Source: a virus
Strand: one strand, 5' to 3'
IMG/VR virus record: IMGVR_UViG_3300010162_000535
Coordinates: 12,205-76,204 of that record
DNA: 64,000 bases
Part shown: positions 5,527 through 56,900 of the stretch, one piece after another
Numbering within the stretch: position 1 is the stretch's first letter
Layout: every line of letters begins with the position of its first letter
Notes under the pieces: model-generated
What the model saw: the letters and a program-made list of their open reading frames with translations, nothing else
The model's database searches: none
Told to the model about the DNA's origin: nothing
Translations under genes and position numbers: made by a program

Positions 5527-5529
5527 AAT

Positions 5530-6015: not shown

Positions 6016-6021
6016 TTTATG

Positions 6022-6519: not shown

Positions 6520-6544
6520 AGTATTTATTATAACGGGTTAGCTA

Positions 6545-8427: not shown

Positions 8428-8600
8428 GTCTTTTTCTCCTCATTATTCTTTTTGTCATCAATCTTAAAAATTGTACTTTCGGTGCCACCGCAGGCGCACG
8501 GCACAATATAACTAATAATATCCTCGTTATCTTCGACAACAGTATTATTAGTCAAGAAATTGTCACAATCTTTACACTTTATATAAAACGCCCTAGGCAT
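8361..8600 (-). CDS. Small CxxC-containing hypothetical protein
   Basis: CKDC and CACGG motifs; TAATG coupling to the upstream gene. Confidence 0.55.
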   Translation of the reverse strand: MPRAFYIKCKDCDNFLTNNTVVEDNEDIISYIVPCACGGTESTIFKIDDKKNNEEKKTWLQRLMAVIARKETNRRLLSI

Positions 8601-38780: not shown

Positions 38781-39647
38781 TCATCTTTTGTATCGACGCA
38801 TTAGCGTTTCAACTTCTTCACGAAATGTTACCCCGCCTAGCGCTACTTCTTTATTTTCCCATTTTTCATATTCTTTTCTAAATGGGCCAAAAGTTAGCTG
38901 AGCTACCTTGCTGTCCGACACTAATAATTGCTCATTCATCCTGTTTAAGAATTTTAAAGCAGCTTTAGGGTCGTCCTTTAGGGCAATTAAGCGATCATCA
39001 ATGAAAGCTTCGACGTGAGAACGTCTAAGCCTAGCAACATCGCGGCGAATTTTAGCCGCTATAAGGCTCGATGAGCTTTCAACTTCAATGTTCACGGGTA
39101 CGGTGCAAGCTTTGTCTAGATTACACTCGTGGCACACGAGCTGCTCATTATACGGAGAATCTTCTCCCTTATTTGCATGAGGGTTGTTATGATCTAAAGA
39201 AAACCTTCGATCTTCTTCAGCATAAACTCCAATTCCATATTTAACGTGCAACACTTCGCCGCCAGGATCTAATGACACTTGTTTTTCTAACCAGTAAGAT
39301 TTAACCTTTCTTTTACAAAGGGGGCACCTCTTAATACCTTTGAGCACAAGTTGACGATACATTGCTTTATAGTAGTTTAATAAGCAATTAATCCGTTTAT
39401 CGTCGATAACAAAAGAAAACTGAGTTCGTGATACTTTGTCACTGTAACTAGGCAATAATTCAGCTTGCAATTCAGGCGGGTATTGCTTTTTTATCGCCTG
39501 GAATTCTTCTTCGCCATAGCAGTAAATGACATTAATATGCTTACGAACTTTGCTAGTAAACTTCATTAGTTCTATTGTGGTTAGCTCGCGGAGCTTAACA
39601 ACTTCTCTAATTACGTTCTTTCTAGCTTTCTTCCCTTTCCTTCCCAT
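38781..39647 (-). CDS. HNH endonuclease-domain protein
   Basis: CPLCKR...FSLDHNNPHANKGEDSPYNEQLVCHECNLDK; GAAAGGAGG SD. Confidence 0.85.
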   Translation of the reverse strand: MGRKGKKARKNVIREVVKLRELTTIELMKFTSKVRKHINVIYCYGEEEFQAIKKQYPPELQAELLPSYSDKVSRTQFSFVIDDKRINCLLNYYKAMYRQLVLKGIKRCPLCKRKVKSYWLEKQVSLDPGGEVLHVKYGIGVYAEEDRRFSLDHNNPHANKGEDSPYNEQLVCHECNLDKACTVPVNIEVESSSSLIAAKIRRDVARLRRSHVEAFIDDRLIALKDDPKAALKFLNRMNEQLLVSDSKVAQLTFGPFRKEYEKWENKEVALGGVTFREEVETLMRRYKR

Positions 39648-39668
39648 AATAACCTCCTTTCTATCTGG

Positions 39669-39703
39669 TGTAATAACATCGCGTTATTACAATTTTATGT
39701 ACC
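39669..39703 (-). promoter_or_regulatory. Promoter-like motif GGTACATAAAATTGT (39689-39703) overlapping inverted repeat TGTAATAAC-5-GTTATTACA (39669-39691)
   Basis: Seen directly. Confidence 0.65.
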
Positions 39704-39705
39704 AT

Positions 39706-39735
39706 AAAAAAAGGAGGATATGATAATATATCCTC
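39706..39735 (-). terminator. Rho-independent terminator
   Basis: GAGGATAT-loop-ATATCCTC then C and T7. Confidence 0.8.
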
Positions 39736-39743
39736 ACGGGTAA

Positions 39744-40604
39744 TTAAGACATAAGAACCTTTAATTGACGCTCAACCTCAGTTAAACGCCTATCAAAATC
39801 TTCTGATGATGACTGAAGAACTGTTTCAACCATGGCTTTCTGTTGTAACGTTTTCTCCCATTTATTAAAGAAATTGGCGCCAACTGCACCCATTTCTTTA
39901 AACGCAGCTTTTAATGCTGCTCGACGACCGCCATCATGGATTAACATTGCCTCTAACTGCTCTTCAGCTAAGGAAACACGCCGCTTAACTACAGCAATCA
40001 AGGATAAGATCTCATCCCTGGATTCTTGAAGTTTAAGTTCTTTTTTGAGTAAGAGAGCCGCTTCTCGTTCCTTTTCCTGGCGTATTTGTTCAGCCCTTAT
40101 GGCCTGAAGTAAGTCATCACTCGATTTAACCGAAGCATCAATGACAAGCGCTCCCTTTGCCTGATTGCATGTTGCGCACATCGGCTGGTAATTGCTCATT
40201 TCATTTAGGCCGCCTGCTGCCTTAGGACGTATATGATCCTTTGTCAACAAAACTTCGTCTGTGCCTACAACAGCATAGACATTAACGGACAACTTATCCA
40301 TATCCGCCACGCTAAGAGGTCGCTCAATTGCCCAAAGCGATCCTTCGACCCCACAAGCTACACAACGAGCACCGTCTCGCAGAAATACACGATGTCTGTC
40401 GGATAAGCACACAATAGAATGCCCTTCGATCTTACAGGTGTATCGTCCTGGATCCACGTCTTTGTAGTGTATCAGCGATAAGCCCTGCTTCTCAATAATC
40501 CCCTTTGAGCGACGGGTTATCTGAATATTGTCTAGGTAGCACTGCCGTAACCAACGCTTCTGCTCGTCAGTTAGAATGTGCAGCCTTTTCACTCCTTCTA
40601 TCAT
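39744..40604 (-). CDS. HNH endonuclease with C-terminal coiled coil
   Basis: VFLRDGARCVACG...LTKDHIRPKAAGGLNEMSNYQPMCATCNQAKG; GAAAGGAG SD. Confidence 0.9.
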   Translation of the reverse strand: MIEGVKRLHILTDEQKRWLRQCYLDNIQITRRSKGIIEKQGLSLIHYKDVDPGRYTCKIEGHSIVCLSDRHRVFLRDGARCVACGVEGSLWAIERPLSVADMDKLSVNVYAVVGTDEVLLTKDHIRPKAAGGLNEMSNYQPMCATCNQAKGALVIDASVKSSDDLLQAIRAEQIRQEKEREAALLLKKELKLQESRDEILSLIAVVKRRVSLAEEQLEAMLIHDGGRRAALKAAFKEMGAVGANFFNKWEKTLQQKAMVETVLQSSSEDFDRRLTEVERQLKVLMS

Positions 40605-40691: not shown

Positions 40692-43600
40692 TTAACCGTC
40701 ATGCGCGAACCAATTGGCATCTTCTTCATTTATAAAAGGACTTATTGGCGGCCTGTGCGGCGCGTCATTTGGAAGATTAGGCAATACTGATTTAATAATC
40801 GGATTTGGCTGCCCTGGCTTTTGCTTAGTAAAATCAGTACGCCCAACAACAGCTGGATAAAATGAAGGCCCAAACGGATCAGCTGTCAGTCCCTTCTGTG
40901 TAGCCTCTAAAATAGACTGCTTTTGATATGATCCGCCCATTCGAGTTAACCAATCATTACTATATCTAGTATTGGCCATAGCTCGTACCATATTAGATTG
41001 AAATTTAGCTGGATTAGGATTTGCTGTAATTTTATCTATTCCATATTTCTTTAGGTTAGCTAACACGCTGGGCCGTAGCTTAGTTCCAATCGTATAATGC
41101 AATACAGGTTCTTCTAAATATTGATTTGCAAAGTATTCAGGGCGACCAATTTGGGAATCTTCACGAGGCTCATAGTCAGCTTCATACTGGGAATATGATA
41201 CTGTCTCATCTGGCAAATAATTACCGTGTTCTTCACTAATTCTTACATGGTCTATCAATCCTTTAGCTAGCAACTCAATATTCCGTTTATTAGCTCGTGT
41301 GCCAGCTGCTCCTAAGGTATCACTAAATGCCTGTACAAAATACCTTCGCCCTTCTCCAATGCCTTTATGGTGCACGACTTCAGCCGGATTTGGCAGCCCG
41401 TCAGAAAGAGTGTCGCCGGCTTCAATAACATCACCAACTTTTACCGTTGGCTTATTTGTATGCGGGATAATATGTTGCTGATTATTTATCGTAACTATTT
41501 GATTACCTAGCTCATCTGGCTCTATTTTTGTGACTTTCCCATCCTCTTGTGAATGAATAGCTCCCTCATAGACCGACGGAACTTGTAGCATCTGATTTAA
41601 ACTTTTAAACCCTGATACCGCCTTAGCTGTCCCGCCCGCCACGCCGCCAGAATTATGTGTTATTAGGCCGTTGGCCAGTAGGTAGAGATGAGTTCGATTT
41701 GCAATCTCTAAATCATATACTTGTTGTACGCCTATGCCTTTTGAACTAATTAACGTATATTTTTTATCTTTTTCCTGTGTTTTTAAACTGATGTTATCTA
41801 AATTATTTTTTAATTTAGATCGTTTTACACCGTATAAAGGTATTTCCGTATAAAACAATTTAATATCTTTTCGTCTTAAAATATTAAAAGAATAAAGTGT
41901 TCGTTTTCGTCCCGAAGTTGTTTTATAAACTCTGGTGCTATGAATCCCAAAACGCACCTCTAATAAATTACGTAATTCACGTACCATTTGCTCAGAAGTA
42001 GAGCCAAAGCTCAGCGCTAGCGTGTTTTTCTTAGTCACGTATATACTGCCATCCGTTATCCACAACCCTCCAATTAATGCAGCTATGGACGTTTTATCCC
42101 AGGCTTTAACTACCTCAGGAATAAATTTTTGGTGAGATTTAGCCCCGTATAAATTCAACTCTTTTAACCATTGCTTCAATGGATTGCGCTCAGATGAAGT
42201 CACTCGACCTAAGTTATCGCGTGCAGTTATTTTATTTTTTAAGCGAGAAATACGATAGTAGCCGTAATGATCTGTTAATTCAGTTATTTTTAAGTTAAAC
42301 AAATACATGTATGCCTGTAATTGCGGCACTAAAGTATCGTCATGGCATGACAAGAATACGCCATTAACACTTTTAACAAAACAACCATCACCTAATAAAA
42401 GACCTAGTAATAATGCTCTAGACTCCCTGATTCCTTCAAAATCATAAGTACTTCTTACAGATAGCGCATCATAACTATCACAATTTAGGCCTATTCGTAA
42501 TGATTTATTTTTTGTATAATTTTTATTGGTTTTTTTCGAAAATCTTGAAATGGTTGCAAAAAATCGATGCTGATCAGTACACGTAACTGTTATATATTCT
42601 TCTGTTTTTCCTATTTGAAAAGTATATTCACTACACTCTTGCAAACCATTATTAAATATATTACTAACCTGCGCTGGTTTAGCCACTTGATCTTTATCTA
42701 CGCCTAATACATAATCCCCTATTTTAATTTCTTCGATTTTTTTAGTGGAAAAATCTGCCATACGAATCAGTGTACCTTCGGCTAAGCAGTGCTTCGAGCT
42801 CAAGGAGCCCTGTGTAATTTGCTCAGAAATGGCTTGACCGGCAGTGATACTAGGATTTTCCCCTGACACACTTAATCTATTTTTAGCTGTCTGGCCTACA
42901 TCATAAGCGTATAAACTACCATCGCCGGGCCCGCCCACTATTGGCGATCTAACAAGAATATCATTTATTTTCTTGTTTTGTAAATCTTTAAGAACTGCAT
43001 CCGTGATTAATGTATTTCTTTTGTAACCCCCAATGGGGCTGGCTAAATATCTACCAACGTTACCATTATCATCTGCCGTGGCTGGCAGGCCAGTATTAGG
43101 TTTAAATCCTCCGGCCGTTGCATCTTGTGCAGAAATAACCCCTTTATGAGCTACCTGGGAAAGCTGTTTCGCCAAAAATCCAGCATCGGCGACTTGGAGC
43201 TTCGTATCGACTACTCCTTTTCTAGCCCCAAAACTGCCCGCCCAATATTCAAATAGATTTAATCCTTCACCGTAATTATGCATTACTGGATACGGAATTG
43301 GATTATCGCTCGAGCCTGTATATAATCCATCAAACCCTACTCCGGCAGAAACAGCGAATGGATTTCCTTTAGCGCCACTAGCCCGTAATAAAGCGAGCGG
43401 TGATTCATCCGCCTCTAATGTTTCAATAAGCTCTTTACGTAAAGCTTCTCCGCCCTCCAACATTGTCTGATTAACTAACTCGTCTTTTTGCCGTGAAGTT
43501 AAATTATCGTTCTCATAAATCTTCTTCAGCTTAGCATTAATTCTTTCCCTGTGCTTTTTTGTTACCTCTGGCGTAGTAACTAAATCCGAAGCTAAACTAT

Positions 43601-43793
43601 AGCCTCCTGACCGTTGCGCAAAGGTAGCGCCCAAACGACCTAGCTTACCAACTATCTCGGAATATTTCTCTGGATTTTTAGTTGCAATATCTTTAAGAAG
43701 TTTTTGCATGCCTTTTTTATCCAAGACACGGGTATTGTCACGGTATTCTGGCGGCAAAATTTCATTGATTAATAATTGTCCTGCTGTTGCCAT
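40692..43793 (-). CDS. rpoC: RNA polymerase beta' C-terminal half, intein-containing
   Basis: ATAGQLLINEILP (cf. TTVGRAILWMIVP), ASGAKGN (SGARGS), EGLNLFEYWAGSFGARKGVVDTKLQVADAGFLAKQL (bridge helix), SSKH|SGG (trigger loop), SGFKSLNQML (GLPRVADLF), RANKRNIELL. Confidence 0.95.
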   Translation of the reverse strand: MATAGQLLINEILPPEYRDNTRVLDKKGMQKLLKDIATKNPEKYSEIVGKLGRLGATFAQRSGGYSLASDLVTTPEVTKKHRERINAKLKKIYENDNLTSRQKDELVNQTMLEGGEALRKELIETLEADESPLALLRASGAKGNPFAVSAGVGFDGLYTGSSDNPIPYPVMHNYGEGLNLFEYWAGSFGARKGVVDTKLQVADAGFLAKQLSQVAHKGVISAQDATAGGFKPNTGLPATADDNGNVGRYLASPIGGYKRNTLITDAVLKDLQNKKINDILVRSPIVGGPGDGSLYAYDVGQTAKNRLSVSGENPSITAGQAISEQITQGSLSSKHCLAEGTLIRMADFSTKKIEEIKIGDYVLGVDKDQVAKPAQVSNIFNNGLQECSEYTFQIGKTEEYITVTCTDQHRFFATISRFSKKTNKNYTKNKSLRIGLNCDSYDALSVRSTYDFEGIRESRALLLGLLLGDGCFVKSVNGVFLSCHDDTLVPQLQAYMYLFNLKITELTDHYGYYRISRLKNKITARDNLGRVTSSERNPLKQWLKELNLYGAKSHQKFIPEVVKAWDKTSIAALIGGLWITDGSIYVTKKNTLALSFGSTSEQMVRELRNLLEVRFGIHSTRVYKTTSGRKRTLYSFNILRRKDIKLFYTEIPLYGVKRSKLKNNLDNISLKTQEKDKKYTLISSKGIGVQQVYDLEIANRTHLYLLANGLITHNSGGVAGGTAKAVSGFKSLNQMLQVPSVYEGAIHSQEDGKVTKIEPDELGNQIVTINNQQHIIPHTNKPTVKVGDVIEAGDTLSDGLPNPAEVVHHKGIGEGRRYFVQAFSDTLGAAGTRANKRNIELLAKGLIDHVRISEEHGNYLPDETVSYSQYEADYEPREDSQIGRPEYFANQYLEEPVLHYTIGTKLRPSVLANLKKYGIDKITANPNPAKFQSNMVRAMANTRYSNDWLTRMGGSYQKQSILEATQKGLTADPFGPSFYPAVVGRTDFTKQKPGQPNPIIKSVLPNLPNDAPHRPPISPFINEEDANWFAHDG
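41652..42788 (-). mobile_element. Intein (379 aa) with LAGLIDADG homing endonuclease
   Basis: Starts CLAEGTLI and ends LITHN|S; LLGLLLGDGCF and IGGLWITDGSI motifs. Confidence 0.95.
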
Positions 43794-43796
43794 AAT

Positions 43797-45017
43797 TTAA
43801 TTACGGTAAAGGTATATTAATTGTTCAAGTAAATCTTCGTCTTTTGTCTGATTTGTTAAATAATTTAACGACTCTGCAGACGGTTTCAAGTTTTCATAAG
43901 TTAAGGTAGTAGCTCCGGCAGTCGGTGCTGCCATAGTACTGTAATCATTAACTGGGCAAGTAACACATAAATTCCATGTCTTTTCGCACATAGTCTGGCC
44001 GCCAACTGACCAACGACCTCTTACTTCAAAACATTCTTTTAACGTATCATAACAACGATAACCATCTGGCGCAAATACCGGAACAAACTGCCCGCCGCCC
44101 GTCAAACGCACGGATGAGGGAGAAACCTCCCAGCTGCCACAGTCCGTGTACGGCACGATGTTTAAATAAATAAGCCCTAAGTCATAACCTCCATATGCAT
44201 TGGCCGCACACGGATTATACATGCTGGAAAAATCATAATCATCGTATTCATCGCTGGGCGGAATAGGCCCTCCTTGAATTGGCGGGCAACTTGACCACCG
44301 CAAATCCGCCTGACACATATCACAAATATCTACGGCTACATTGTGATGTCTTCTTGAGTTTTCTATAATGCTTGTGTCATTACTATAAATGAAAGTTTGA
44401 TTTCTAAAGTTATTTGAAATTTCACTAGCTAAATAGTGCCTTAATGGCATCTCAAACGTAAATCCGCCTTCACGTATTTGTGTAACTTTATTATTAGGTA
44501 CGTCGATGATATACCTAATAATTTTTTGAGCTAACACGCTGCCATCTCGCCTATGTGCGGTTAAGGTAAAATCTTGTATTTTTGCCGGCCCTTGAATAGG
44601 TATTTTTACGCTAGGCGGAGAAATACCATAATAACCGCCATTCATCTCACAATTACAAGCGCCTGCTGTATCGGCCACCCTATCCTCCGGCACGGGATAA
44701 GCAGTAAGCTCGCAGTCCCCTTGCGGACATTCTAAGAGAAGGGTAATTGGTGGAATTAAATCATCAACAGGAATACAAGGTATTTCTGCATCAGGTACCA
44801 GCGGCATATTAGCTGGTGGAAATTGAAATGTATCCGTAGGTGCAGGAAATTCACAGCAAGGCACAGGTACCAGCTGCTGCACATAAGGCATTATATTGCC
44901 TGACCCATAGCATTCTCGGTCTAAACCATGTGGATTACGCACCATCCCTGACGAAAGGTAGCTTAAAGCACCGCTCGACAGGCCAGAACTATAATATGCC
45001 GCTAATCCACTTGACAT
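43797..45017 (-). CDS. Cys/Pro-rich putative virion protein
   Basis: 406 aa with many Cys; co-transcribed block. Function is inference. Confidence 0.55.
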   Translation of the reverse strand: MSSGLAAYYSSGLSSGALSYLSSGMVRNPHGLDRECYGSGNIMPYVQQLVPVPCCEFPAPTDTFQFPPANMPLVPDAEIPCIPVDDLIPPITLLLECPQGDCELTAYPVPEDRVADTAGACNCEMNGGYYGISPPSVKIPIQGPAKIQDFTLTAHRRDGSVLAQKIIRYIIDVPNNKVTQIREGGFTFEMPLRHYLASEISNNFRNQTFIYSNDTSIIENSRRHHNVAVDICDMCQADLRWSSCPPIQGGPIPPSDEYDDYDFSSMYNPCAANAYGGYDLGLIYLNIVPYTDCGSWEVSPSSVRLTGGGQFVPVFAPDGYRCYDTLKECFEVRGRWSVGGQTMCEKTWNLCVTCPVNDYSTMAAPTAGATTLTYENLKPSAESLNYLTNQTKDEDLLEQLIYLYRN

Positions 45018-45019
45018 AA

Positions 45020-45961
45020 TTATTCACAAGGAGGAACCGGAGGAACCGGCGGCTCCTCACATTCGCCGCGTATGTCACCAATACATGTAATTGTTAAAGT
45101 TTGTGGCTCACATTGATCAAGAGGCGTTACCTCCGCAATAAAATTATTATCATGCGTTAATACAATATGATTACCGTACGCCCCAGCTACGGTTTTTGCA
45201 AAAATTTTACCGGCCTCAATGCCGTCAAATCTATTAGAGTCCGGAGGATTAAACGGTTCAAAATTACCGTCAAAGTAGCCTTTACCTATTGGTGTTTTAA
45301 CCTGCCCTAAACCGGCCCCAGCTAGCGGCATTAATACTATTCTATTTTCTAAAGGTAAAAAAGTTATTAAACAATTGTAACCTTCTTTAAAAATAACGTC
45401 CCCTAAAGTTATGGAACCATAAGACCAGAAAGACGGTCGATTTTCAGTCGGATCGGGTAAGCACTTATTACTGGGTAAAAACCTATCTTGATTAAGAATC
45501 TCAATAGAGTTTATTTTGCGTTTATTTAGTATTTTGACACAGCCAATGTATACTGGAATATCCGTAAATTCAGGTGTTTGGCTGCCCTCAATTGGAAGAC
45601 AACCTAATAATGCTGCGTGGCCTATCGTTATAAACCCGTATAAGTCACTACCCGCTACGCTTTTTATTGTTGTAAAGTCAAGAGTATTTTTAGGAATAAT
45701 AAACTCTAGCGGATGAAACTCCTCTCCTTCAGAAATAATGACAGTTACTTTATAGCCGTCACTTACCTGCCTTAACGAAGCCATTACCTCAGCTGGGCTA
45801 ATGTCATCGTTGCTAGTGTAAAGAACAATACCTAAATCTACAATACCTTTTTGCAGTACATTTATTTCAATTTCACTAAAACTCGAGCGGTTTGACTGAA
45901 CCTGCTCTTCGTCAAAAGGATAAAAACGTAATGTATTTTGTGAATAAAAACTAGTTTCCAC
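45020..45961 (-). CDS. Putative tail-associated structural protein (N-terminal FYSQNTLRFYPF family)
   Basis: 313 aa; N-terminal motif shared with neighbours; Cys/Pro tail. Confidence 0.5.
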   Translation of the reverse strand: METSFYSQNTLRFYPFDEEQVQSNRSSFSEIEINVLQKGIVDLGIVLYTSNDDISPAEVMASLRQVSDGYKVTVIISEGEEFHPLEFIIPKNTLDFTTIKSVAGSDLYGFITIGHAALLGCLPIEGSQTPEFTDIPVYIGCVKILNKRKINSIEILNQDRFLPSNKCLPDPTENRPSFWSYGSITLGDVIFKEGYNCLITFLPLENRIVLMPLAGAGLGQVKTPIGKGYFDGNFEPFNPPDSNRFDGIEAGKIFAKTVAGAYGNHIVLTHDNNFIAEVTPLDQCEPQTLTITCIGDIRGECEEPPVPPVPPCE

Positions 45962-46745
45962 GAGCTGCCAATCGTATGTCTAAACTATTTCGTCTGCCTG
46001 TAAGACGTAGCGCATCGCCATAAAGTACTAAACTATTTGTATATATAGGTATATTGCCATTTATGTCCGGTAACAATGTAAATGATTTACTAATTAAATT
46101 AGCCGGATCTCGATTATTAATTACAGTTAAGTCGATACTTGCTACATACCTATTAAAAAACTCTTCTTCAAATACTTCTTGTCGCCAAATTGCATAATAA
46201 GGTTCGCCAGTAAAGTGAAAAAAAACTGCATTATCTTTTCTTTCTAATGTTATTCCCTGTGTACCAACAAATTCAACATCGCCAGTCACTAGCTGCCCAT
46301 CTACAATAAAGCCCACTAATCTATCTTCGACTATGGGTACATGACACGCTACCTCAAACATGGCCGTACCTCGTAATAACGAATAATCACCATCAGGTAC
46401 AAATAGAATCGATTCTAAGGACTTAACAACCAATAATCCAGCTCGCCGACCCCATGTATCGATTAGCTCAATCGTCTTTTTTGTGAACTCATTTATATTT
46501 TCCGCTTCAATTCTATAGTGCCCTTCAATAAGTTCTTGAGTGACTATCGTACCTATGTAAATAGTAATTTGTCCGCGTCGCTTTACCAGTCGAGTTATTT
46601 CATATCTATTCTGCCCAGTGACATAAATATGCGCATCAGCAATAAAGTCTGCAGGAAAATATATCGTGTCCGTCAGCTGAAATGAAGACATTTCGCTGAA
46701 CGGGTAATTAGCTGCCTCATGATAAGGGAATGCTCTTGGATACAT
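45951..46745 (-). CDS. Putative tail-associated structural protein (FPYHEAANYPF...FIADAHI)
   Basis: 264 aa; N-terminus resembles 45020 and 46750. Confidence 0.5.
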   Translation of the reverse strand: MYPRAFPYHEAANYPFSEMSSFQLTDTIYFPADFIADAHIYVTGQNRYEITRLVKRRGQITIYIGTIVTQELIEGHYRIEAENINEFTKKTIELIDTWGRRAGLLVVKSLESILFVPDGDYSLLRGTAMFEVACHVPIVEDRLVGFIVDGQLVTGDVEFVGTQGITLERKDNAVFFHFTGEPYYAIWRQEVFEEEFFNRYVASIDLTVINNRDPANLISKSFTLLPDINGNIPIYTNSLVLYGDALRLTGRRNSLDIRLAARGN

Positions 46746-46749
46746 TTAA

Positions 46750-48420
46750 TTAATATGCTTGCAATACGCCAAAACCTGCCCAAAAACGTGGCCTTCCACT
46801 GGTGCTAGGCTGGCCGTTAGCTACTCTCCGCCAAGGCATAAACCAGGGATTATCTAGCTGAGGCCAGGGTAAATTAGTGGTATCAACTAATACTTCGCCG
46901 GTACTTTGTCGATGTAATCTCATTTTTAGTATATATTCTCCATTAAAATCCATTGGATGCGGTAGCGGCTTCATAAAAAGCCCTAATACTCTATTGCCGG
47001 GCAAACTATGATTAAGCTGATCATAATTTGAATCCGGGTGTCCAGGAGTGTGGTTGTAGAATCTAAAATTCCAAATAACGTCCGGCTCAAACCATGTTCG
47101 ACGCACTTCTATATTACGAGAATAAGCCCAACTACCACAGGTTCCTCGAGAACAGAATGTCCCAAATGGGATATAATACCAGTCCCATGCGCTATTGCGT
47201 AAGGTAAGTCTTGAATTTGTATCTCTTACACACAAGCCACCTGAGCTATGAAAACCGGCTAAACAATTGATTGGCGGCCCTGGCGTACTATTATCGACAC
47301 ATACGCCACCCACTAATATATGTCCTGGAGGGCATTGAATTACTTCCTCATCTCTAACGCAAACTCCATTAATAAGAGTAAAACCTTCAGGGCAGGTGAG
47401 CACAGGCGGCGGCTCAAATCTGTCTGGTGTACAAATACCATTTATTAACGTAAAACCTTCAGGGCAGCTACCGGGCGGATCATTATTACCTCCAGAAACT
47501 CTAACGCAAACATCCCCTACCAGCCGAAAACCTTCTGGACAAGTTAGCTCCGGTAAAATCAATTCCTCACACTCTGGAAAATATGGGGCAGTAGTTACAC
47601 AATCAGCTTCAGGCGTTGGGATAGTAGTGATATGATAGTCTGGATCTGGACACAGAGCTTGCAAATCAAAATCTATACCTAAATGAGCACCAACTGTTTT
47701 ATCCGGTTGCTCAGGTAGTCGCTCAATAATTGGGGCAACTGTAAATGGCCCAATAAACCTTACAGCCAAACTTCCATCAGCCCCAGCAGCAGCGCCATTT
47801 ATATGCCCGACATTGTGCATCGGCGTTTCTTGATACTGTGTAAAGTAATTTATGCCATTAGCTAAGTCTTTTTTTAGTTCATCCTCCAGTACAAAAAATA
47901 TTTTATTGTCTTTAGCCGTAATAGTCAGTCCGTTATCACCTATTAATTCCACCAACCCATTAAAACGTATATGCGTTTTATCGCAGGTCGCGGCTAAAAA
48001 TAAATGCTCTGACCTAAATAAACAACGCTCAGCTATTTTTGACTGAGCTGCCGAACTGTATCTATGAATTACTGGAAGATCTAAAATATTTAAACGCCCA
48101 GGAGTTAACCAGCCAGAATAGCCTTCGGTTATCTGCTCAAGAAAAACCGGACGACCATAAATCCAGTCACTTTTCAACACAGTAGCTGATAAAATGGGTG
48201 TTTCAGCAGTCGCAATAATAACACTTACTAACTCTCGGCCAATATTTATGCTGCTAATATAAGGCTCATCAGTTAAGCTACAGGATAAAAATATATCCGC
48301 AATAAAATCAAGTGGACGGATGTTCCCTTTATCATCTATTCCTGTGGCTACAGGATCAAGAATGAAGCTCCTCGCCTCATTGTGAGGCAGAAAATTAAGG
48401 TAATTTCTATCTAATGACAC
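46750..48420 (-). CDS. Putative tail fibre/adhesin with five CPxG(F/H)xLxxGxC repeats
   Basis: CPEGFRLVGDVC, CPEGFTLINGIC, CPEGFTLINGVC, CPPGHILVGGVC, CLAGFHSSGGLC, then a Trp-rich C-terminal domain. Confidence 0.65.
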   Translation of the reverse strand: MSLDRNYLNFLPHNEARSFILDPVATGIDDKGNIRPLDFIADIFLSCSLTDEPYISSINIGRELVSVIIATAETPILSATVLKSDWIYGRPVFLEQITEGYSGWLTPGRLNILDLPVIHRYSSAAQSKIAERCLFRSEHLFLAATCDKTHIRFNGLVELIGDNGLTITAKDNKIFFVLEDELKKDLANGINYFTQYQETPMHNVGHINGAAAGADGSLAVRFIGPFTVAPIIERLPEQPDKTVGAHLGIDFDLQALCPDPDYHITTIPTPEADCVTTAPYFPECEELILPELTCPEGFRLVGDVCVRVSGGNNDPPGSCPEGFTLINGICTPDRFEPPPVLTCPEGFTLINGVCVRDEEVIQCPPGHILVGGVCVDNSTPGPPINCLAGFHSSGGLCVRDTNSRLTLRNSAWDWYYIPFGTFCSRGTCGSWAYSRNIEVRRTWFEPDVIWNFRFYNHTPGHPDSNYDQLNHSLPGNRVLGLFMKPLPHPMDFNGEYILKMRLHRQSTGEVLVDTTNLPWPQLDNPWFMPWRRVANGQPSTSGRPRFWAGFGVLQAY

Positions 48421-48436
48421 AATCTAATTATAACTT

Positions 48437-48760
48437 ATGCAAGAAAAGCTAGAGACGGAGCGAGAATGGCGTGAACAACAACTTAACTACGCTTTTAATA
48501 GCCTTATTAAGGTACCACAAGTGTTCAAATTTAGGTCAATTAATACTGCGCTTAACTGGGTGAGAAAATACAGCCCTACGTTAATAGGGCTGTTAATTGA
48601 GAAGAAATTTACGTTTATTTTGTTTAAGATTAAGAGAAAAGCTGAAAGCTGCGGTCTTGAAGTCGAACAACAGTGCACAATTTGGATTAAAATCCCAACT
48701 ACTCAACGAAAGAGTAACATTGCATTTTTAAATTACAAAAATAATCCCACATTCTCATAA
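48437..48760 (+). CDS. Hypothetical protein
   Basis: 107-aa ATG ORF that fills an otherwise empty gap. Confidence 0.55.
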   Translation: MQEKLETEREWREQQLNYAFNSLIKVPQVFKFRSINTALNWVRKYSPTLIGLLIEKKFTFILFKIKRKAESCGLEVEQQCTIWIKIPTTQRKSNIAFLNYKNNPTFS

Positions 48761-49844
48761 AGGTGTCCAAACGTTGCTCCAGCGTAGCTTGAAAATAAGG
48801 CACATTGTTGCGTCTTTCCATAAAAGTCACTAAATTACGGCGATTAAATAACTTCTTATTTACTAAATTAAATAACCTATCCCAATTTGGCACTACTCTA
48901 TCAAAACCATACCCAAATTCCTTCATTTGCCCCTTAAAAAGTACGCCAAATTTACCATTATCAAGTATGTCTCTATAAATTGGTTGGTCAAAACCCGCAA
49001 CAAGCAAACCTTGATGTAAGGCAGCTGACAAAAAATAACCTACATGATTCATTGGATTAAGATCAATAAATAAATCATGCTGTTCAACAATATTTAGATA
49101 CTCAAAGTCAGAAAAACAATTTATGACTAAACATTTATCCGAGCACTCTAACCCCATTTTCTCCACAAACTGAGCTTCTTCACGATAGGATTTACCGTCC
49201 ATCAATAAGGTAATAAAAACATCAGTACGTTCTTCAAGAGTTTTAACGATATTCTTAAGAATAGCTAACCTATTGGACGGGTTTTTAATCCCGCACATTG
49301 AAATTGTTACTTTTATTTGTTCTGGATTAATTAGATCGCACCGAGTAGGTTTAAGAGTTCTAAATGAGCCCGGGTAGCAAGCCTGCGCACCATAGGGGCT
49401 TCCCATTAAACAGTTATTAAAGCGATTGTCTAGCTGCTTTGTAGGTAAAATAATAGATTGATATTTTTTAGAGCTGCACATTTGCTCCCAATCCCACTTA
49501 ACATAGTCAGCAAACAAATAATTTTGACAACCCTTTGATTTGTCGATATAATCTCTGCGATAGTCAAACCAATACACTGCTTTAGCTTGAACTTTGTCGC
49601 CTTGAGCAGTATAGCCTCTCAAGCGACGTGCAAAATCATTAGGACTGACTATCCTGCGCACACAGTGATCTATTAGCGGGGAACAGTAGCTAGAGATTGG
49701 GTCTAATGTAACATATTCAAAATTATATTTTCGAATATCTACAGTTTTTTTTACGATAAAAGAAGCCATTGCAGAAGCATAAACAGCAGCTTCACTCTGT
49801 TTATACGGAGCAAAGAAAATAACGCGCCTTTTTGGTGTTGACAT
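48699..49844 (-). CDS. Divergent GT-B (GT4-like) protein
   Basis: C-terminal YLNIVEQHDLFIDLNPMNHVGYFLSAALHQGLLVAGFDQPIYRDILDNGKFGVLF follows the GT4 pattern but lacks both Glu of ExxxxxxxE. Confidence 0.55.
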   Translation of the reverse strand: MSTPKRRVIFFAPYKQSEAAVYASAMASFIVKKTVDIRKYNFEYVTLDPISSYCSPLIDHCVRRIVSPNDFARRLRGYTAQGDKVQAKAVYWFDYRRDYIDKSKGCQNYLFADYVKWDWEQMCSSKKYQSIILPTKQLDNRFNNCLMGSPYGAQACYPGSFRTLKPTRCDLINPEQIKVTISMCGIKNPSNRLAILKNIVKTLEERTDVFITLLMDGKSYREEAQFVEKMGLECSDKCLVINCFSDFEYLNIVEQHDLFIDLNPMNHVGYFLSAALHQGLLVAGFDQPIYRDILDNGKFGVLFKGQMKEFGYGFDRVVPNWDRLFNLVNKKLFNRRNLVTFMERRNNVPYFQATLEQRLDTFMRMWDYFCNLKMQCYSFVE

Positions 49845-49888
49845 AGGGGTATGAGTTTAGAATTAGGGGTAATTATAAGAGTAGGCGT

Positions 49889-49916
49889 AATATACCCCAG
49901 CTAGAATAATTGTCAA
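49889..49916 (-). promoter_or_regulatory. Sigma70-like promoter TTGACA-N16-TATATT
   Basis: Seen directly upstream of the 49844 start. Confidence 0.5.
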
Positions 49917-50488
49917 GTGCCCCCTCTTGCGCGGCGCACATTCTGTGGCTGGCGTTGCTCCAGCACTGGTGCAGCTTGACTCCGCGCCTCATAATCTTCC
50001 TTTACGAACTGTAACGCCTCTTGCATTGTGACAAAACCATCACCATTTAAATCCAGCATCACAAATTCTGCCACTGCTGCCCCAATAGGTAAGGTACTGG
50101 CAGCAATGTATTCAACCATTGAAATTTGACCATCTTGGTTTGCATCAAACTCAAAAAACCAACTAAATGAGCTAGACTTTAGCTCCGCTGAGACATTATC
50201 GTATACGCCAGAAATAGTGACAGTCTGCTGTTGAGTAGCTGCTATGGGCGCTGGCGGCTGCCTCAGGCTAGGAGGCGCTGGTAGCGTAGGCGGGCGCATA
50301 CCAAATTGGAGTATCGGCTCCCATAAGGTAATTTGAGGCTCGCCAAATGGTCGCACCAGTGGCGAATTATCAACTACCGGAGCTGCTACCTCAGCTGGCT
50401 GCTCTGGCGTTCTCTGTCCTCGCTGAGGAGCCTGAGCATAAAGATTAAACGTAAAAAAAAGAAGTAGGAGAATTAATAATACTCTCAT
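49913..50488 (-). CDS. Secreted EF-hand protein
   Basis: Signal peptide MRVLLILLLLFFTFNLYA; EF loops DANQDGQISMVE and DLNGDGFVTMQE. Confidence 0.85.
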   Translation of the reverse strand: MRVLLILLLLFFTFNLYAQAPQRGQRTPEQPAEVAAPVVDNSPLVRPFGEPQITLWEPILQFGMRPPTLPAPPSLRQPPAPIAATQQQTVTISGVYDNVSAELKSSSFSWFFEFDANQDGQISMVEYIAASTLPIGAAVAEFVMLDLNGDGFVTMQEALQFVKEDYEARSQAAPVLEQRQPQNVRRARGGT

Positions 50489-50524
50489 ACTTCTTTAAAC
50501 CCCGCAAGGTTACAAAAGTTCTTC

Positions 50525-50537
50525 TCTCGCGCGAGAA
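50525..50537. repeat. Palindrome TCTCGCGCGAGA(A), copy 5 of 5
   Basis: Exact match, intergenic. Confidence 0.9.
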
Positions 50538-50540
50538 AAA

Positions 50541-51044
50541 TTACCATCTAAACGGCGGCCGTTGTTGCGGATGTCCAAACTGTGTGGGGAAGGATTGATT
50601 CCACCCATGCTGCTGAGTGAAATTTTGATTCCATCCGGGCCCGGGCCGAGACTGATGGATGTTAATCTGGGTTGGTCTTGTCATGTTGTGCATAACAATA
50701 CCGTGAAATACGCGATCAACAATATGCGGTGCAGCTGCCGCCAATACTGCGCCTGGGCGCGGTTGGTAATGGTGCTGTACCATCACCATTCTTTGTCCCG
50801 TTATCCCGCAAATGAAGATTTGCTGCGGCTGAGGAGGTGCCATGACCGCGTGTACCTGCACATTAACAGGCTGCTGTGCTTGTATAGGCTGTGGCACCTG
50901 TAAATGTGCTCGCAAGGCTTGCTCTCGCTTTAACGCCTCAATTTGGGCGTTAATTTGAGCATCTGATAGCTGCTCAACAACTTGCCCTAGGGCAGCTGTT
51001 GCAAGCAATAATGTAGCAACACAAAAAATAATGAGATGTTTCAT
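50541..51044 (-). CDS. Secreted Gln/Pro-rich protein
   Basis: Signal peptide MKHLIIFCVATLLLATAALG; AGGAG SD. Confidence 0.75.
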   Translation of the reverse strand: MKHLIIFCVATLLLATAALGQVVEQLSDAQINAQIEALKREQALRAHLQVPQPIQAQQPVNVQVHAVMAPPQPQQIFICGITGQRMVMVQHHYQPRPGAVLAAAAPHIVDRVFHGIVMHNMTRPTQINIHQSRPGPGWNQNFTQQHGWNQSFPTQFGHPQQRPPFRW

Positions 51045-51077
51045 TGTTAGTCTCCTATTGTTAGAGGTTAAATTATC

Positions 51078-51092
51078 CCAAAATCATGTACC
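51078..51092 (-). promoter_or_regulatory. Degenerate promoter-like motif GGTACATGATTTTGG
   Basis: Two deviations from consensus; followed by ATTTAAC and an SD. Confidence 0.45.
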
Positions 51093-51108
51093 AGAATAGT
51101 CACCATAT

Positions 51109-51543
51109 TTAACGCCTAAATGAGCCGTCCGGATTTGCCCCGATATTCTGATTTACGCTGCGAGTCATAGGCGTAAAGCTAGGCTGTAGTCCTCCTGGAT
51201 TTTGAGGAGAAAAGGGCGGCGCAGAATGCCACTGCGTATAAAGATTCGCCAGTCCTAGCCCTGATGTACCAAGAGTGGAGCCTAAGCCAGTTCCCACTGA
51301 TAACAACTTCCGCTGCATAGGAAATGAGACATTATTGGAAAACCATCCTTTTAAGTTCTCTCCAATATTGCCTAAAAAGGCCTGCTTACTAAAAGGAACA
51401 TACTTAGCTTCTTTTACTTTTTCCGGTAGTGTTTTCATATTCGGTGTCTCCTGTGCCCATCTGTGTGCGGTACCTTCGGGTAACTCCCCGTCAGCTTCAG
51501 CTGCAAAAAAGAATCTTTGTTGTGCTTTAGACTTGAATGGCAT
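51109..51543 (-). CDS. Putative virion protein (MPFKSKAQQRFF...LPEKV N-terminus)
   Basis: 144 aa; Gly-rich hydrophobic C-part; TAATG coupling. Confidence 0.6.
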   Translation of the reverse strand: MPFKSKAQQRFFFAAEADGELPEGTAHRWAQETPNMKTLPEKVKEAKYVPFSKQAFLGNIGENLKGWFSNNVSFPMQRKLLSVGTGLGSTLGTSGLGLANLYTQWHSAPPFSPQNPGGLQPSFTPMTRSVNQNIGANPDGSFRR

Positions 51544-52331
51544 TAGCGTATCCCCCTTCTTCGTCTTTCTTCTTCCTCTCTAGCGCGCTGCTCTCGCTGC
51601 CTTGACAACATGTAAAGCCCGCCAATACCTAAAGCCCCAACTCCACCTGCGGCAGCAACCCAAGGAGCCCAGTCACCAATAGTCTTCCACATATTCTGAC
51701 CCTGCCTCTGTAAACCGCTCGCGTTTTGATTCAGTTCAGCTATGTGCGGCATACTGTCGTCCAGCGCACCAGCTAAATTGTGCATTCCCTCAGCAGCCTG
51801 CTGTCCTCCGCGATTTATTCCTCGACCAATAAAATAACCGCCGCCACCTAAGCCGCCTAGTAATCCGCCGCCTACAGCTAAATTCTGACCTGTATTACCG
51901 CCTCGCGCAGCTGTCGCCGTATTTACGGCATTAGCTGCCGACGTACCGCCGCCGCCAATGTTATATCCGGGCCCCGCAGGGTATGGGTAACTTGCAGTGG
52001 GCGTTGCTGTCATTCTAGGTGCTGCCGAAGCCGACGGCGTAGTAAATGTCCAAGGAGCATTGGGGTTAAATCGTTGTACGTTACGCCCTACAGTATCCCA
52101 ATCATTTCTACTCATTGCGTGTAGCGTATGCCTTAACTGATCATATTTAGCTCCATGAGCTGCCATATCAAACAAATGATCACTGTTCTGGGCAGTTAGT
52201 CGACCAAACCCAGGTAATGCTCGAATAGCATCATCTGATAATGTTGTAGAAACTGCCTTAACCGCACCGCCGGACGCCAGCTTCAAAATACCATCGACAT
52301 TAATTTCTACAATTTTTAATATGCCTTGCAT
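51543..52331 (-). CDS. Gly/Ala-rich putative internal virion (ejection-like) protein
   Basis: Two Gly-rich hydrophobic helices, ending in a charged tail RQREQRAREEEERRRR. Confidence 0.55.
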   Translation of the reverse strand: MQGILKIVEINVDGILKLASGGAVKAVSTTLSDDAIRALPGFGRLTAQNSDHLFDMAAHGAKYDQLRHTLHAMSRNDWDTVGRNVQRFNPNAPWTFTTPSASAAPRMTATPTASYPYPAGPGYNIGGGGTSAANAVNTATAARGGNTGQNLAVGGGLLGGLGGGGYFIGRGINRGGQQAAEGMHNLAGALDDSMPHIAELNQNASGLQRQGQNMWKTIGDWAPWVAAAGGVGALGIGGLYMLSRQREQRAREEEERRRRGIR

Positions 52332-52343
52332 AATATCTTTAAT

Positions 52344-53891
52344 TTAAAATATAGCCCCAAAAGTGTCTACAAAAGCCTTATTTAATGTTTTAGGGTATTC
52401 AATAATTTGACCCCTATAAAAATCAGCATTTTGTGCGACACCCGCCGCTTCTTGCCCTAAACGACTGACACCATCAGCGGATATACGGCGCGCATCCTGA
52501 GGCTGAAGCGCCCTACCTGCTACTAAATCACCCATGCCTCGAAGACCTGCACGATACCATGCAGTACTCCTATCTAATCCTTCTCTCCATACATTTCTTG
52601 AACCGCCTGACAAATTACTTAAACTGCTACTCAACGCACCAACAGTGTTGGGCTTACCTGTAAGTTTGTTATGAGCTAAATACCCAGCTAAGCCACCAAT
52701 ACCCAAACCACCTATCCCTAAAGCTGCCGGAAGAATGTAATCAGAAAAACGTAATCTACCGCGACGCTTAGTCTCTCTCTCTATATTATCCTGCAAGCTA
52801 AAAAATCGATCGTCAGAAATATTTCTTCTGGTTAAATCATCCTGCGCCCTAAGCTGATACCTTTCCGCATCCCTACGGCGCGCATTACTCTTATCTCTTA
52901 ACACATTATAGGCACCCACCAAACCAAGAGCCCCTATTCCAGTACCAATACCTGCCGCGCCTAATAAATTTACAGCATTACTTGCATTTTGAGCTGGTTC
53001 TTTGTAAGAACGTAAAAGCTCATTTGTAGTATTTAGATTTTGCACCAAGGCACTATCTGGAGAAGTTAAACTTTCCTTCACCGCATCTTGTATATTATTC
53101 CCCATGAGCGCGCCGCCTGCGCCAAGACCCCCTGCAAAACCTGCACCAATCGGGACAGAAATTGCTAAACGGCCCATAACGTTTCCTTTTTTAACAGTTT
53201 CACCCTCTAATGCCCTGTTAAAAATGTTGGGCATAATATTTTTTATCCCACTGTAAGTAAGGTAGCCTAGTCCAGCACCGGCCCCTAACGTAGCTAAAGG
53301 CCCTAAATAATCACTAAACTGTAAACGACTGCGCTTAGCCGCCTGATCCTCTAGCTCTAATTGCCTAGCTAAATATTCGTGCTTATCTAGCCCAGCTCGT
53401 ACTAAATTTTTCTCCGCATGCCATAGTCGTCGCTCCGCATCTCGTCTACGTCTATCTTTATTACGATTTAACCAAGAATACGCGCCTAAGGCGCCAAGCG
53501 AACCCATTGAACCTGCACCTAAATAGGCAGCTAAGTTCCCGCTAACATTACCAAAACCTTCAACTCCTTTATTTAGCTTATCGCTAAAACTAACTACCGC
53601 AGCATTAAAAGTATCGTCTAAACTTCGCTCACGAGTTGAATTTATCAAATGCTGCGTAGGCCTGTCAATCAAAGCCTCAGCTGCTCCTTGCGCAGGATTG
53701 CCAGCTGCAGCAGCTTCTGCGTTAGGCAGTATAAAACCTTTATCTAAAGCATTTACACCTGCCATGCCCGTCACGCCTAGCATGCCAGTTCCAAGCAAGC
53801 CGTTTAGTGCACGCCCTATCCACGCCAATTTGAGAACTTGTTTATCATCCACACTATAATTATAAGGCCGCTCTCTTTTAAGAATCTCCAC
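52344..53891 (-). CDS. Gly/Ala-rich putative internal virion protein with an internal duplication
   Basis: The unit GxLGAY...RRRDAER...RLxFSDY...G-rich helix occurs twice. Confidence 0.6.
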   Translation of the reverse strand: MEILKRERPYNYSVDDKQVLKLAWIGRALNGLLGTGMLGVTGMAGVNALDKGFILPNAEAAAAGNPAQGAAEALIDRPTQHLINSTRERSLDDTFNAAVVSFSDKLNKGVEGFGNVSGNLAAYLGAGSMGSLGALGAYSWLNRNKDRRRRDAERRLWHAEKNLVRAGLDKHEYLARQLELEDQAAKRSRLQFSDYLGPLATLGAGAGLGYLTYSGIKNIMPNIFNRALEGETVKKGNVMGRLAISVPIGAGFAGGLGAGGALMGNNIQDAVKESLTSPDSALVQNLNTTNELLRSYKEPAQNASNAVNLLGAAGIGTGIGALGLVGAYNVLRDKSNARRRDAERYQLRAQDDLTRRNISDDRFFSLQDNIERETKRRGRLRFSDYILPAALGIGGLGIGGLAGYLAHNKLTGKPNTVGALSSSLSNLSGGSRNVWREGLDRSTAWYRAGLRGMGDLVAGRALQPQDARRISADGVSRLGQEAAGVAQNADFYRGQIIEYPKTLNKAFVDTFGAIF

Positions 53892-53908
53892 CTTGACCCT
53901 TAACTAGC

Positions 53909-56900
53909 TCATCGCCGCAGGATCTCAACTTCATCGGACAACTGAACTTCGCCTCTTACCCATGCTTGCTTAAAATCAGCCATTGTTGCGAAGACCTTTG
54001 GGCGGCTTTTCTTTTTTCTAGATCTAGTAGCTTCATAAAGCCCAGCTATGTAGTCCTCTTGTGGCGTAAAGTTAGGAGACCCATCAGTCATATTTAGTAA
54101 ATTTTGTGAAGGCAGCATCAATCTTATTGCATCTTGAACTGCGTCATCGCTGATAGGTAATTGAAAATTCATAGCATCGCCGTCGAGGTCAGCACCAAAG
54201 CCTCCCATGGTATATTGATTCATTTGGATGCTATTTCCTTTAACTAGCTTAGGCCAAAAAGCCATAATTCCATATTGGTGCAAAATAGGAGATCGATCAA
54301 GAACTACTGGACGCTCTTGCACTGACTGTAAAAGTGCAGCTTTAGCTCGCTTGTCTTTATTATCGTACATGTCCTGAGCTGTCGTAAGCGGAACACCGCT
54401 TTGAGCTAGCTTCCTGATAATTACTGGTTTATAGATTTCATAAGCTGAATTAATGGGTAGCCCAACTTCATCTAAATCAAGATTGGGCGACATGGTAATT
54501 ACGTTACGGGAAACAACGTCAACGCCTCCACCCAATAAATTACGTTGTACCATTCCATATTTACTGCTCCCCTCCCCAAAGACATGTCGCAATAACCCTG
54601 TTACCCGTTTTTGCTGTAGCTTGGGATGGGACGGATCCATTAATCCAGTTATTTGTTTAAAATAGTTGTAAGACTGCAAATACTCTTCACCTGCGTCACC
54701 AATTTGACCTTCTAGCTCCTTAACTGTTTTATCGTGATCAATCATTTGCTTATACAAATAATTAACATCGGCAATTAAAGCAGTTTTTGTCCCGCCCATC
54801 TCAGACACGGGCCGGAACTTAGGCGGTATAACTGGAATACGATCCAGCATCCAATCAGCTGGCGTTAAATCATTATCTTTAGCTGCCTTTAAGAACTGCA
54901 GCTTCTTTACTGCTTCATCTCTTTTTGTGCCTCTTGTACTGGCTATAGTTTCACGAGCACGAGACATTTCATGGTCAACATTTAGCTTGCCTAAAGCTTT
55001 TCTAATAGCTTGTGGCCCAGTTCCAAACTCATTTAATTGTGCCCGACCAGCTATGACATCATTTAATTTAGCCTGTGTCAAACCTAGCATTCTTCTAGCT
55101 GGCTCTTCCATTACCGGATTAAGCATAGGCTGAGCTGGTTTAATAAAGCCCCATTTCTCGCCATACTCACCAAAAATAGCTGGATCAAATAATCCGCCTT
55201 TAATACCCTTTTTATCGCCTTCCCACTTAATTGTTTCAGAAGAAGTGACTTCCCTATTACCAACTAATTGCTTGACATCATTATTAGTAAGGGCCAAGAT
55301 TTTCAGCTTGTTAGCTGTTGGCGTTACATTAATTCCCGATCCTTGAAGGTGAGCCATAAACTTATGATACATTTGAGGCATTTCTGGCTCAGGCGGCTGA
55401 TAACCTCTCATAAAAGCTGCCCAATAGTCATCATTTTTCTGCCCACGAATTCGCCTCGCATCAGCTAACATGTTATAAGCTCCATGACTTATAAGGGCGT
55501 TTGTGTGCATAAGAGCTACTCTTTTGGCCCCTTCACTGCCTCCGCTTGCAGGTTGTTCATCAGCTGTGTAATGACCAAAAGAACGGTCACTTGTCTTTCC
55601 CTCAGCTGAATGATGGAGTTTTTGAACGTAGCTGTAGCCCCACCCAATACCCTTTCCGTCCGTCCCGGTTATTAATTTACCTGTTTCAGGATCTAATACT
55701 GGATCCCGTGGATTAATTCCATGTTCTTTTGCCAAGCGCAAAACATATGCCGCCGTGTCAGGCTCCTTGGGATCAAATGATTCAATCTTAATTGGCTTAC
55801 CAGTTTTCTTAGCAATTCGGCCTAATAAATGCTCATGCAGCATCGAATAATTTACTCTACCGATATTTCCTATTGGAGAATATACAATTTCAGCTGGGCC
55901 ATCAGGAGTTTGTGGCATCTGATCATCAGGGACTATCTCAGCAATAACGCCTTTTGCCCCATATCTGTTCGCGAGCTTATCTGCCAAACGTGTTGGCGAC
56001 AAAGAACTTACGACTACATTAACACCATTCTTATCATTAAACACCTCAACCACCTGACCTGGGTCTTCATGATCCCATTCCAGCGCACTATTAGTTAATG
56101 ACTGTGCGCCTTTACGATGGATGCGATCAACCGGTTTTGTATTTACATCAGCTTTAAGCACCATTGGGTCGCCTTGATTTAAGACTGTCCCAATACGTAC
56201 AACACCGTCATCGTCGATAGTGTCTAGCTGAGCTGCATCATAGACTGATGGAAATGCGCCCATAAAGGTTTTCTTACCCTGCTTAATATTCTCAGCCCAA
56301 TCTACTTTATGCTGATAGGCATGCTGAGACTTCATACGATCAGCCATCGATTTGCTGATAATAATTGCATCCATAGTATTACTGCCTCTCCACGGCATTA
56401 CAACCGCCCTAGCATTAAACCCCTGTGCCATTGCGCCAGTATCATCCGTAAAATTAGATTTAGCTAACAGCTGGCCTTTTGTAATCTGCTGACCGGGTTG
56501 AACTACTGGAGTTTGAGTAGTATAAGTATTGTGCACAACTAACCCACCGCCTACACAAAAACAATGCGAATTAGCTACCGTCAAATCATATACATCAGTA
56601 ACGAACTCTGTTAGTTTTATTTCTGTGATTAAATCCCATTCAATATCCGAAGCTGCCCACAATCCAAAATTACCAGAAATATCTTTTAGTAATTTTTTAG
56701 GTATTGCGCCTTTTGTACCGTACCTGTATAATTCTCGCCATTTTTTTAATTCCCAAAATTTCTTAGGTCTTAAATTTTTTAATAATTTAATTGAAGCTTT
56801 ACTAACTGGTACTTTTTCAGTACAGCCCGTTATTTGTCGTTTATTTTTTTGACAATTTAAAAGATCATCTAATAATTTTTGACGATCTTCATAAATAAAC

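Follow-up and report, generated by a model that had tools for sequence, protein, structure and literature searches.

Loss of both beta' zinc sites and of cysteine from the predicted spliced chains of a bacterial-type RNA polymerase in tailed phages

Multisubunit RNA polymerases (RNAPs) are regarded as having, almost universally, two structural zinc sites in their beta' subunit; can such an enzyme do without them, and must it then initiate transcription differently? This question is raised by a 64,000-nucleotide stretch of viral DNA (positions 12,205 to 76,204 of IMG/VR record IMGVR_UViG_3300010162_000535; hereafter, the window), in which two genes encode the large subunits of a phage RNAP. Work of Markov et al. 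in 1999 and of King et al. in 2004 reportedly tied zinc site II to assembly in Escherichia coli and the N-terminal zinc ribbon (site I) to termination and antitermination. The N-terminal zinc domain has been described as common to all multisubunit RNAPs (PMC7618050). An earlier reading of the window (the original prediction) had proposed that both sites are abolished, that the enzyme must therefore initiate differently, at a non-sigma70 promoter motif, and that it is possibly packaged in the virion. In our analysis, the enzyme differed from bacterial beta' in having neither the N-terminal zinc-binding domain nor the second zinc site, no cysteine outside its inteins, and a fusion of beta with beta'.

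The window comes from a virus record of 92.7 kb, estimated to be 41% complete, and all of its long open reading frames (ORFs) lie on the minus strand; the same RNAP protein is also present on a 225-kb contig. The two genes encode bacterial-type multisubunit RNAP large subunits of a tailed phage of about 225 kb. In the first of them, beta is joined to the N-half of beta' without a linker, and the frame ends about 90 residues past the catalytic Asp triad. The gene for the C-half of beta' is located 10 kb downstream, and the genes between the two could not be annotated. Beta' is split close to the position of the rpoC1/rpoC2 junction of cyanobacteria and plastids. More than 1000 database proteins matched the beta' N-half; among the matches listed, all were of fusion length and contained both beta and beta' Pfam domains. 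No RNAP gene other than these two was found in the phage record, and a tRNA scan returned none.

Homology with E. coli RpoC and with the cyanobacterial and plastid gamma/beta' chains was clear: the last 497 residues of the fusion ORF matched bacterial beta' chains in the PDB at E 1e-53, and Rpb1_2 (72.8 bits) and Rpb1_5 (59 bits) scored above their Pfam cut-offs. The AlphaFold2 model of the beta'N fragment (aa 1441–1937), with a mean predicted local distance difference test score (pLDDT) of 83, was superposed through its residues 35–497 on residues 22–553 of E. coli beta' with a Z score of 22 and a root-mean-square deviation (rmsd) of 12.7 Å over 450 residues. For the model of the N-extein of the C-half (mean pLDDT 86), Foldseek ranked beta' chains of bacteria and plastids first (E 1e-16); the family is thus right, but the template modelling score was only about 0.45 and the rmsd about 11 Å because the domains of the isolated fragment are arranged differently, and the match is uninformative on local site geometry. 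The active site, the trigger loop with its His residue, and the beta' zipper are the same as in the cellular enzymes.

Zinc site I was compared with E. coli rpoC in a MAFFT alignment. The domain is deleted, as the original prediction had it, and the three peptides quoted there were all located in the window at the places given; a short turn, GEYGEK, stands in place of the zinc ribbon of about 33 residues (C70/C72/C85/C88 in E. coli). Both flanks—the zipper region upstream and a W-x-x-I strand downstream, where MGHIEL stood—are retained; the deletion, located at the GGLFD...W..I junction, is therefore clean. Model confidence around the scar was high (block pLDDT 87–95). The segment F57–I105 of E. 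coli, 49 residues with all four cysteines, is reduced to 16–22 residues without Cys in 114 of the 114 family members surveyed, and the deletion extends to gp206 of Salmonella phage Arash and to Vibrio phage D69. The CxC...CxxC ribbon is present in phage RNAPs with an unsplit beta', namely those of Rhizobium phage RHph_Y65 and Vibrio phage Va2; its deletion is therefore a trait of the fused family, and the alignments place it in the common ancestor of that family.

The second site has likewise lost all four of its cysteines, again in agreement with the original prediction. E. coli C814, C888, C895, and C898 correspond to A225 (43119–43121), G288 (42930–42932), Y295 (42909–42911), and D298 (42900–42902) of the beta' C-half, which fall within AQDATAG (43110–43130, minus strand) and RSPIVGGPGDGSLYAYDVG (42894–42950, minus strand); the model has a block pLDDT of 88–96 around these positions. 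A library-wide search returned 443 clusters at 50% identity (E < 1e-30), and the 150 best representatives were aligned together with three added rows. Among the 132 rows of the window's clade with an aligned site, taken mostly from these representatives, none has Cys at the site II positions, and 101 have the exact G-Y-D (134 rows were aligned at the site in all); no half-way state was seen. Within the clade, Y295 is conserved in 87% and D298 in 98%. All four cysteines are retained in Arash, D69, and the basal relative P0236.

To place the loss of site II, a maximum-likelihood tree was built from 63 C-halves of beta', with E. coli, RHph_Y65, and Va2 as the root; the search was quick, the outgroup branches are long, and the alignment still contained the four columns of the trait itself (4 of 635). 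The tree consisted of two groups, the Arash/D69 clade, in which all members keep site II, versus the clade of the window. P0236, with site II kept, falls within the latter as the sister of 39 rows, all without the site (support of 98 in the Shimodaira–Hasegawa-like approximate likelihood ratio test, SH-aLRT), and one loss therefore explains the pattern within the family. On this tree, a single replacement of the four site II cysteines by x-G-Y-D took place in the ancestor of the sub-clade to which the window belongs. As a separate observation, the beta' of Va2 (L011:8512-12090, plus strand), which keeps the N-terminal ribbon, seems to have no site II cysteines either (T, gap, S, and E at the four positions, in a weakly aligned region), and may thus have lost them independently.

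Both RNAP genes contain an intein. The LAGLIDADG_3 match of the beta intein is weak (E 0.0078, below the Pfam cut-off); the beta' intein is inserted directly after the trigger-loop His. Each has Cys1, a TxxH block, and a terminal His-Asn, followed by Thr (beta) or Ser (beta') as the +1 residue. Judged by sequence, both inteins thus have the residues required for splicing, which would leave two chains free of cysteine. All 16 cysteines of the two ORFs are located inside the inteins, 10 in that of beta and 6 in that of beta', and the predicted spliced chains of 1485 and 654 residues (2139 extein residues) contain none. At the average Cys content of the ORFs of the phage record (1.77%), about 38 would be expected in the exteins, and the probability of finding none by chance is about 3e-17; neighbouring ORFs contain 3–4% Cys. 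Relatives without inteins are similar: Cys is absent from 70 of 86 fusion proteins and from 78 of 86 beta' C-halves. The Arash-like C-halves contain exactly four cysteines in 113 of 120 cases, and the site II positions are all Cys in every sampled row. By these counts, the whole family avoids cysteine, and the branch of the window has also given up the last four. The coordinates of these features, together with those of an adjacent group of Gly-rich ORFs, are collected in Table 1.

Table 1. Positions in the window of the RNAP genes, their zinc-site remnants and inteins, and adjacent Cys-free ORFs
Feature	Position	Strand	Evidence
RNAP beta fused directly to N-half of beta', 1938 aa	53909-59725	-	Pfam Rpb2_6 1e-39, Rpb1_2 5e-20, Rpb2_3, Intein_splicing
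Beta' C-half, 1033 aa	40692-43793	-	Pfam Rpb1_5 6.6e-16, LAGLIDADG_3 1.7e-20
Zinc site I scar, GGLFDPAIFGEYGEKWGFIK, aa 1510-1529	55139-55198	-	Direct sequence, MAFFT alignment, AlphaFold2 model
Zinc site II remnant	42894-43130	-	Alignment with E. coli, clade conservation, AlphaFold2 model
Catalytic Mg motif ADLDGD, aa 1845-1850	54176-54193	-	All three Asp retained
Intein in beta, aa 614-1066	56528-57886	-	Pfam Intein_splicing 1.3e-12
LAGLIDADG intein in beta', aa 336-714	41652-42788	-	Clear LAGLIDADG domain (LAGLIDADG_3)
Four Cys-free, Gly-rich ORFs (515, 262, 144, 191 aa) immediately following the beta-beta'N gene	49913-53891	-	Cys counts

Known systems were compared in order to place the enzyme. 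The phage most likely belongs to the mReC clade (Weinheimer and Aylward 2020, PMC7481178), RNAP-encoding Caudovirales known as uncultured tailed phages, some of which exceed 200 kb and whose bacterial-type beta and beta' branch deeply; the paper makes no mention of zinc, cysteine, sigma, inteins, or fusion in these phages. The same beta-beta'N fusion with a separate C-half is found in the cultured relatives of the clade, Arash (gp206 and gp216, with sigma gp10; OQ632216, PMC10585845) and Vibrio phages D69, D148, and D181. These phages share with the window's phage the deletion of the zinc ribbon at the same place, the near absence of Cys, a gp10-like sigma, a homologous portal, and the lack of a detectable alpha gene; the portal homologue of the window's phage, corresponding to Arash gp204, is encoded in the same record outside the window (tblastn E 4e-41, gp204 region). 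They differ in being only about 29% identical, in having no inteins, in the spacing of the two RNAP genes (0.6–5 kb vs. 10 kb in the window), and in their C-halves, where the four site II cysteines are kept and are the only ones.

Direct evidence on packaging comes from Arash. Its gp206, gp216, and sigma gp10 were detected in purified virions, gp206 with the most spectra, and the RNAP homologues were among the most abundant virion proteins (PMC10585845). The Arash virion proteins gp4 (1097 aa), gp10, and gp217 contain no Cys. Fully Cys-free RNAPs that are packed in the virion and ejected occur in the Schitoviridae, namely N4 gp50 and DEV gp71 (PMC11445570), although these are single-subunit, T7-like enzymes of about 3500 aa from podoviruses, without homology with beta or beta'. 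In N4, Cys is absent from the virion RNAP gp50 (3500 aa) as well as from gp51 and gp52, its partners; the same has been reported for DEV, in a study that regards cysteine suppression as conserved among the ejection proteins of the Schitoviridae and ties it to periplasmic passage (PMC11445570).

In phiKZ-like jumbo phages, the virion RNAP (gp178/gp149/gp180/gp80) is a packaged multisubunit enzyme as well, and its gp180 is ribbonless at the same position, but it belongs to an unrelated, far more divergent lineage in which beta and beta' are split and the site II cysteines are kept (gp80). No sigma70-type factor is known for this enzyme. In our alignment, gp180 (L020:37786-39258, minus strand) has no zinc ribbon, and the non-virion gp55 (L019:7923-9185) keeps it; the N-terminal zinc domain is also described as kept in the phiKZ non-virion RNAP (PMC7618050). 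No statement of this difference between gp180 and gp55 was found in the literature consulted. Both phiKZ beta' C-halves keep site II.

A Cys- and zinc-free enzyme of this kind fits being packed in the virion, delivered into the host, and put to work there with a phage sigma, a reading that we consider fairly probable and that favours the packaging suggested by the original prediction. The loss of zinc and cysteine would then adapt the enzyme to virion packing and to its delivery, along with the DNA, into the host. A protein that stays long outside cells and probably crosses the envelope unfolded would need neither thiols nor bound metal to refold. Inside the host, it would most likely act on phage promoters with the phage's own Cys-free sigma70-family factor and without alpha subunits. 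A wider version of this reading is put forward more tentatively, at somewhat less than even confidence. It holds that a cellular-type RNAP of about 240 kDa was rebuilt without thiols or structural zinc for virion storage, threading, and unaided refolding; that the ribbon was lost first, family-wide, and the second knuckle later, giving way to G-Y-D packing; and that packaged multisubunit RNAPs would follow a convergent rule, given that in phiKZ the ribbon is lost from the virion RNAP but not from the non-virion one.

Several points weigh against packaging as the explanation. The link to the virion is drawn by analogy with Arash, whose enzyme shows about 29% identity and has kept zinc site II, and the Arash authors noted that abundant enzymes could be carried over into purified particles (PMC10585845). 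The phiKZ virion RNAP subunits contain 16 Cys in 2614 aa, and Cys loss is therefore no rule for packaged multisubunit RNAPs. According to PMC7618050, where Fraser et al. 2022 is cited, the N-terminal zinc-binding domain is reported absent also from the AR9 non-virion RNAP, an unpackaged enzyme of another lineage with uracil-dependent promoter recognition; ribbon loss therefore does not require packaging. A PHROG scan of 16 ORFs neighbouring the RNAP genes revealed no virion function, only HNH endonucleases and a DHH phosphoesterase. Finally, we infer the absence of zinc from the enzyme from its sequence.

Does the loss of the ribbon preclude initiation with a sigma70-type factor? If so, the enzyme would read the motif GGYA-N2-WAW-N3-TGW by a sigma-independent mechanism, which we consider unlikely. 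The motif itself, as claimed in the original prediction, is there: GGYANNWAWNNNTGW (12510-40674, minus strand) was matched at 11 sites (3.3 expected), of which 9 lie in gene leaders on the coding strand, and it is usually followed after 5–10 nt by TTTAAC and then by a Shine–Dalgarno sequence. No -35/-10 pair at 17-bp spacing accompanies it, which speaks for a sigma-independent mechanism, as does the unusual promoter mechanism of the equally ribbonless AR9 enzyme (PMC7618050). The non-sigma70 character ascribed to the motif does not follow, however. The motif is A/T-rich, with a core, TAnATAA, that resembles a -10 element; it therefore leaves room for a sigma, and the core is compatible with a sigma-read element of the -10 type.

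Another argument for a sigma is a gene. The same record encodes, outside the window (G000:C1:983-1720), a sigma70-family protein of 245 aa without Cys. It matched Pfam Sigma70_r3 with 35.6 bits (cut-off 25.3), region 4 weakly, and phrog_351 at E 2.8e-9; a search of the record for Sigma70_r2 gave no match. Its best PDB matches were sigma F and SigA. Counterparts were present in three relatives: the protein is 31% identical to an ORF of a relative that is 93% complete and matched gp10 of Arash, a component of the virions (PMC10585845), at E 5e-8. In addition to the retained zipper, a helical hairpin was modelled at aa 212–252 of the beta'N fragment, where, as assigned by position, the sigma-binding clamp helices sit. 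In E. coli, the ribbon has been assigned to the RNA exit channel (PMC6606751), and no text making it the main sigma docking site was found in the literature searched. Site II would be dispensable for the initiation mode of the family because Arash and D69 keep it and share everything else. The claim that the enzyme must initiate differently is thus not supported. Unlike in bacteria, no gene for the alpha subunit (PF01000) was found in four records, one of them complete and one 93% complete; in the 41%-complete record of the window, this absence means little.

An equally unlikely explanation is that the enzyme is not packaged, and that cysteine and zinc were lost for some other reason, for example resistance to oxidative or thiol-reactive stress inside the infected cell or independence from the zinc supply. 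It draws on the same AR9 precedent and on the fact that the virion evidence comes from Arash, a relative outside the window's sub-clade. However, Cys is not scarce in the other proteins of the phage, as the averages given above show, and zinc economy would not remove cysteines that are not ligands. The best-documented Cys-free RNAPs are ejected ones (PMC11445570), and the Arash homologues are found in particles (PMC10585845).

It is more doubtful still that site II is occupied in another way, by Ca2+ or Mg2+ or by an Asp/Tyr network in place of zinc, built from acidic residues conserved specifically in the clade. D224, D242, D244, N245, E246, D291, and D298 are indeed conserved around the former site, in addition to Y295. 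No His or Cys specific to the clade is conserved in residues 215–305; the conserved set found there is acidic, with D242, D244, D291, and D298. Asp and Tyr are, however, atypical ligands of structural zinc, and the window's own loop, DDNGNVG, deviates from the clade consensus.

A reading of the two genes as inactive or decaying, with the absent sites as mere damage, was rejected as highly improbable: only the missing sites and the two interrupting inteins could suggest it, and against it stand frames open over 1938 and 1033 codons, the retained Asp triad and trigger-loop His, replacement residues whose conservation extends over more than 130 clusters at 50% identity, inteins with residues that appear competent for splicing, and the lack of any other RNAP gene found in the record.

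The Cys-free, Gly-rich ORFs next to the fusion gene (Table 1) would be candidates for co-packaged or ejected proteins. The block contains a fifth ORF (167 aa) with two Cys, and those of 515, 262, and 191 aa had no PHROG match. A second group of such ORFs was observed around the sigma-like gene (G000:C1:1-2582, outside the window). The Gly-rich, Cys-free ORFs carry hydrophobic stretches resembling Gly zippers and Arg-rich runs. In a relative with 75% identity (L006), a Cys-free block is also located downstream of the RNAP gene, without sequence similarity to the ORFs of the window. In the same relative (2189-8552, plus strand), the beta-beta'N gene is present as three ORFs of 710, 492, and 917 aa, of which the middle one is Cys-rich; this layout suggests a different arrangement of inteins or homing endonucleases in the same gene.

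Other features were also observed in and around the RNAP genes. Two genes of HNH endonucleases (38781-40604, minus strand) are located directly downstream of the intein-bearing gene of the beta' C-half. An ORF of 556 aa between the RNAP genes (46750-48420, minus strand) encodes four tandem Cys-rich modules, CPEGF(T/R)L(I/V)xGxC; with its 18 Cys and no PHROG match, it contrasts with its Cys-free neighbours. At the catalytic motif, GADLDGD (54176-54196, minus strand), Gly stands where the universal NADFDGD has Asn. Among the 62 rows of the clade alignment, this position is G in 42, N in 18, and S and A in one each; it is Ala in Arash and D69. The Asn of E. coli, N458, presumably contacts the ribose of the incoming nucleoside triphosphate, and the sugar selectivity of a polymerase with Gly in this position could differ.

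The phage RNAP family and its association with virions have already been published; the loss of its zinc sites was not found in the searchable literature, including the mReC work and a review of jumbo-phage RNAPs. What the comparison adds is a very large natural clade, comprising more than 130 clusters at 50% identity, that does without both zinc sites and any cysteine. The conserved G-Y-D, together with the relatives that keep site II, forms a natural before-and-after series, and the family thus offers a way to ask what the real purpose of the zinc sites is. The enzyme is also a candidate scaffold for a metal-free and thiol-free RNAP, and Cys-free chains may serve as a sequence signature for predicting phage proteins that are delivered into the host.

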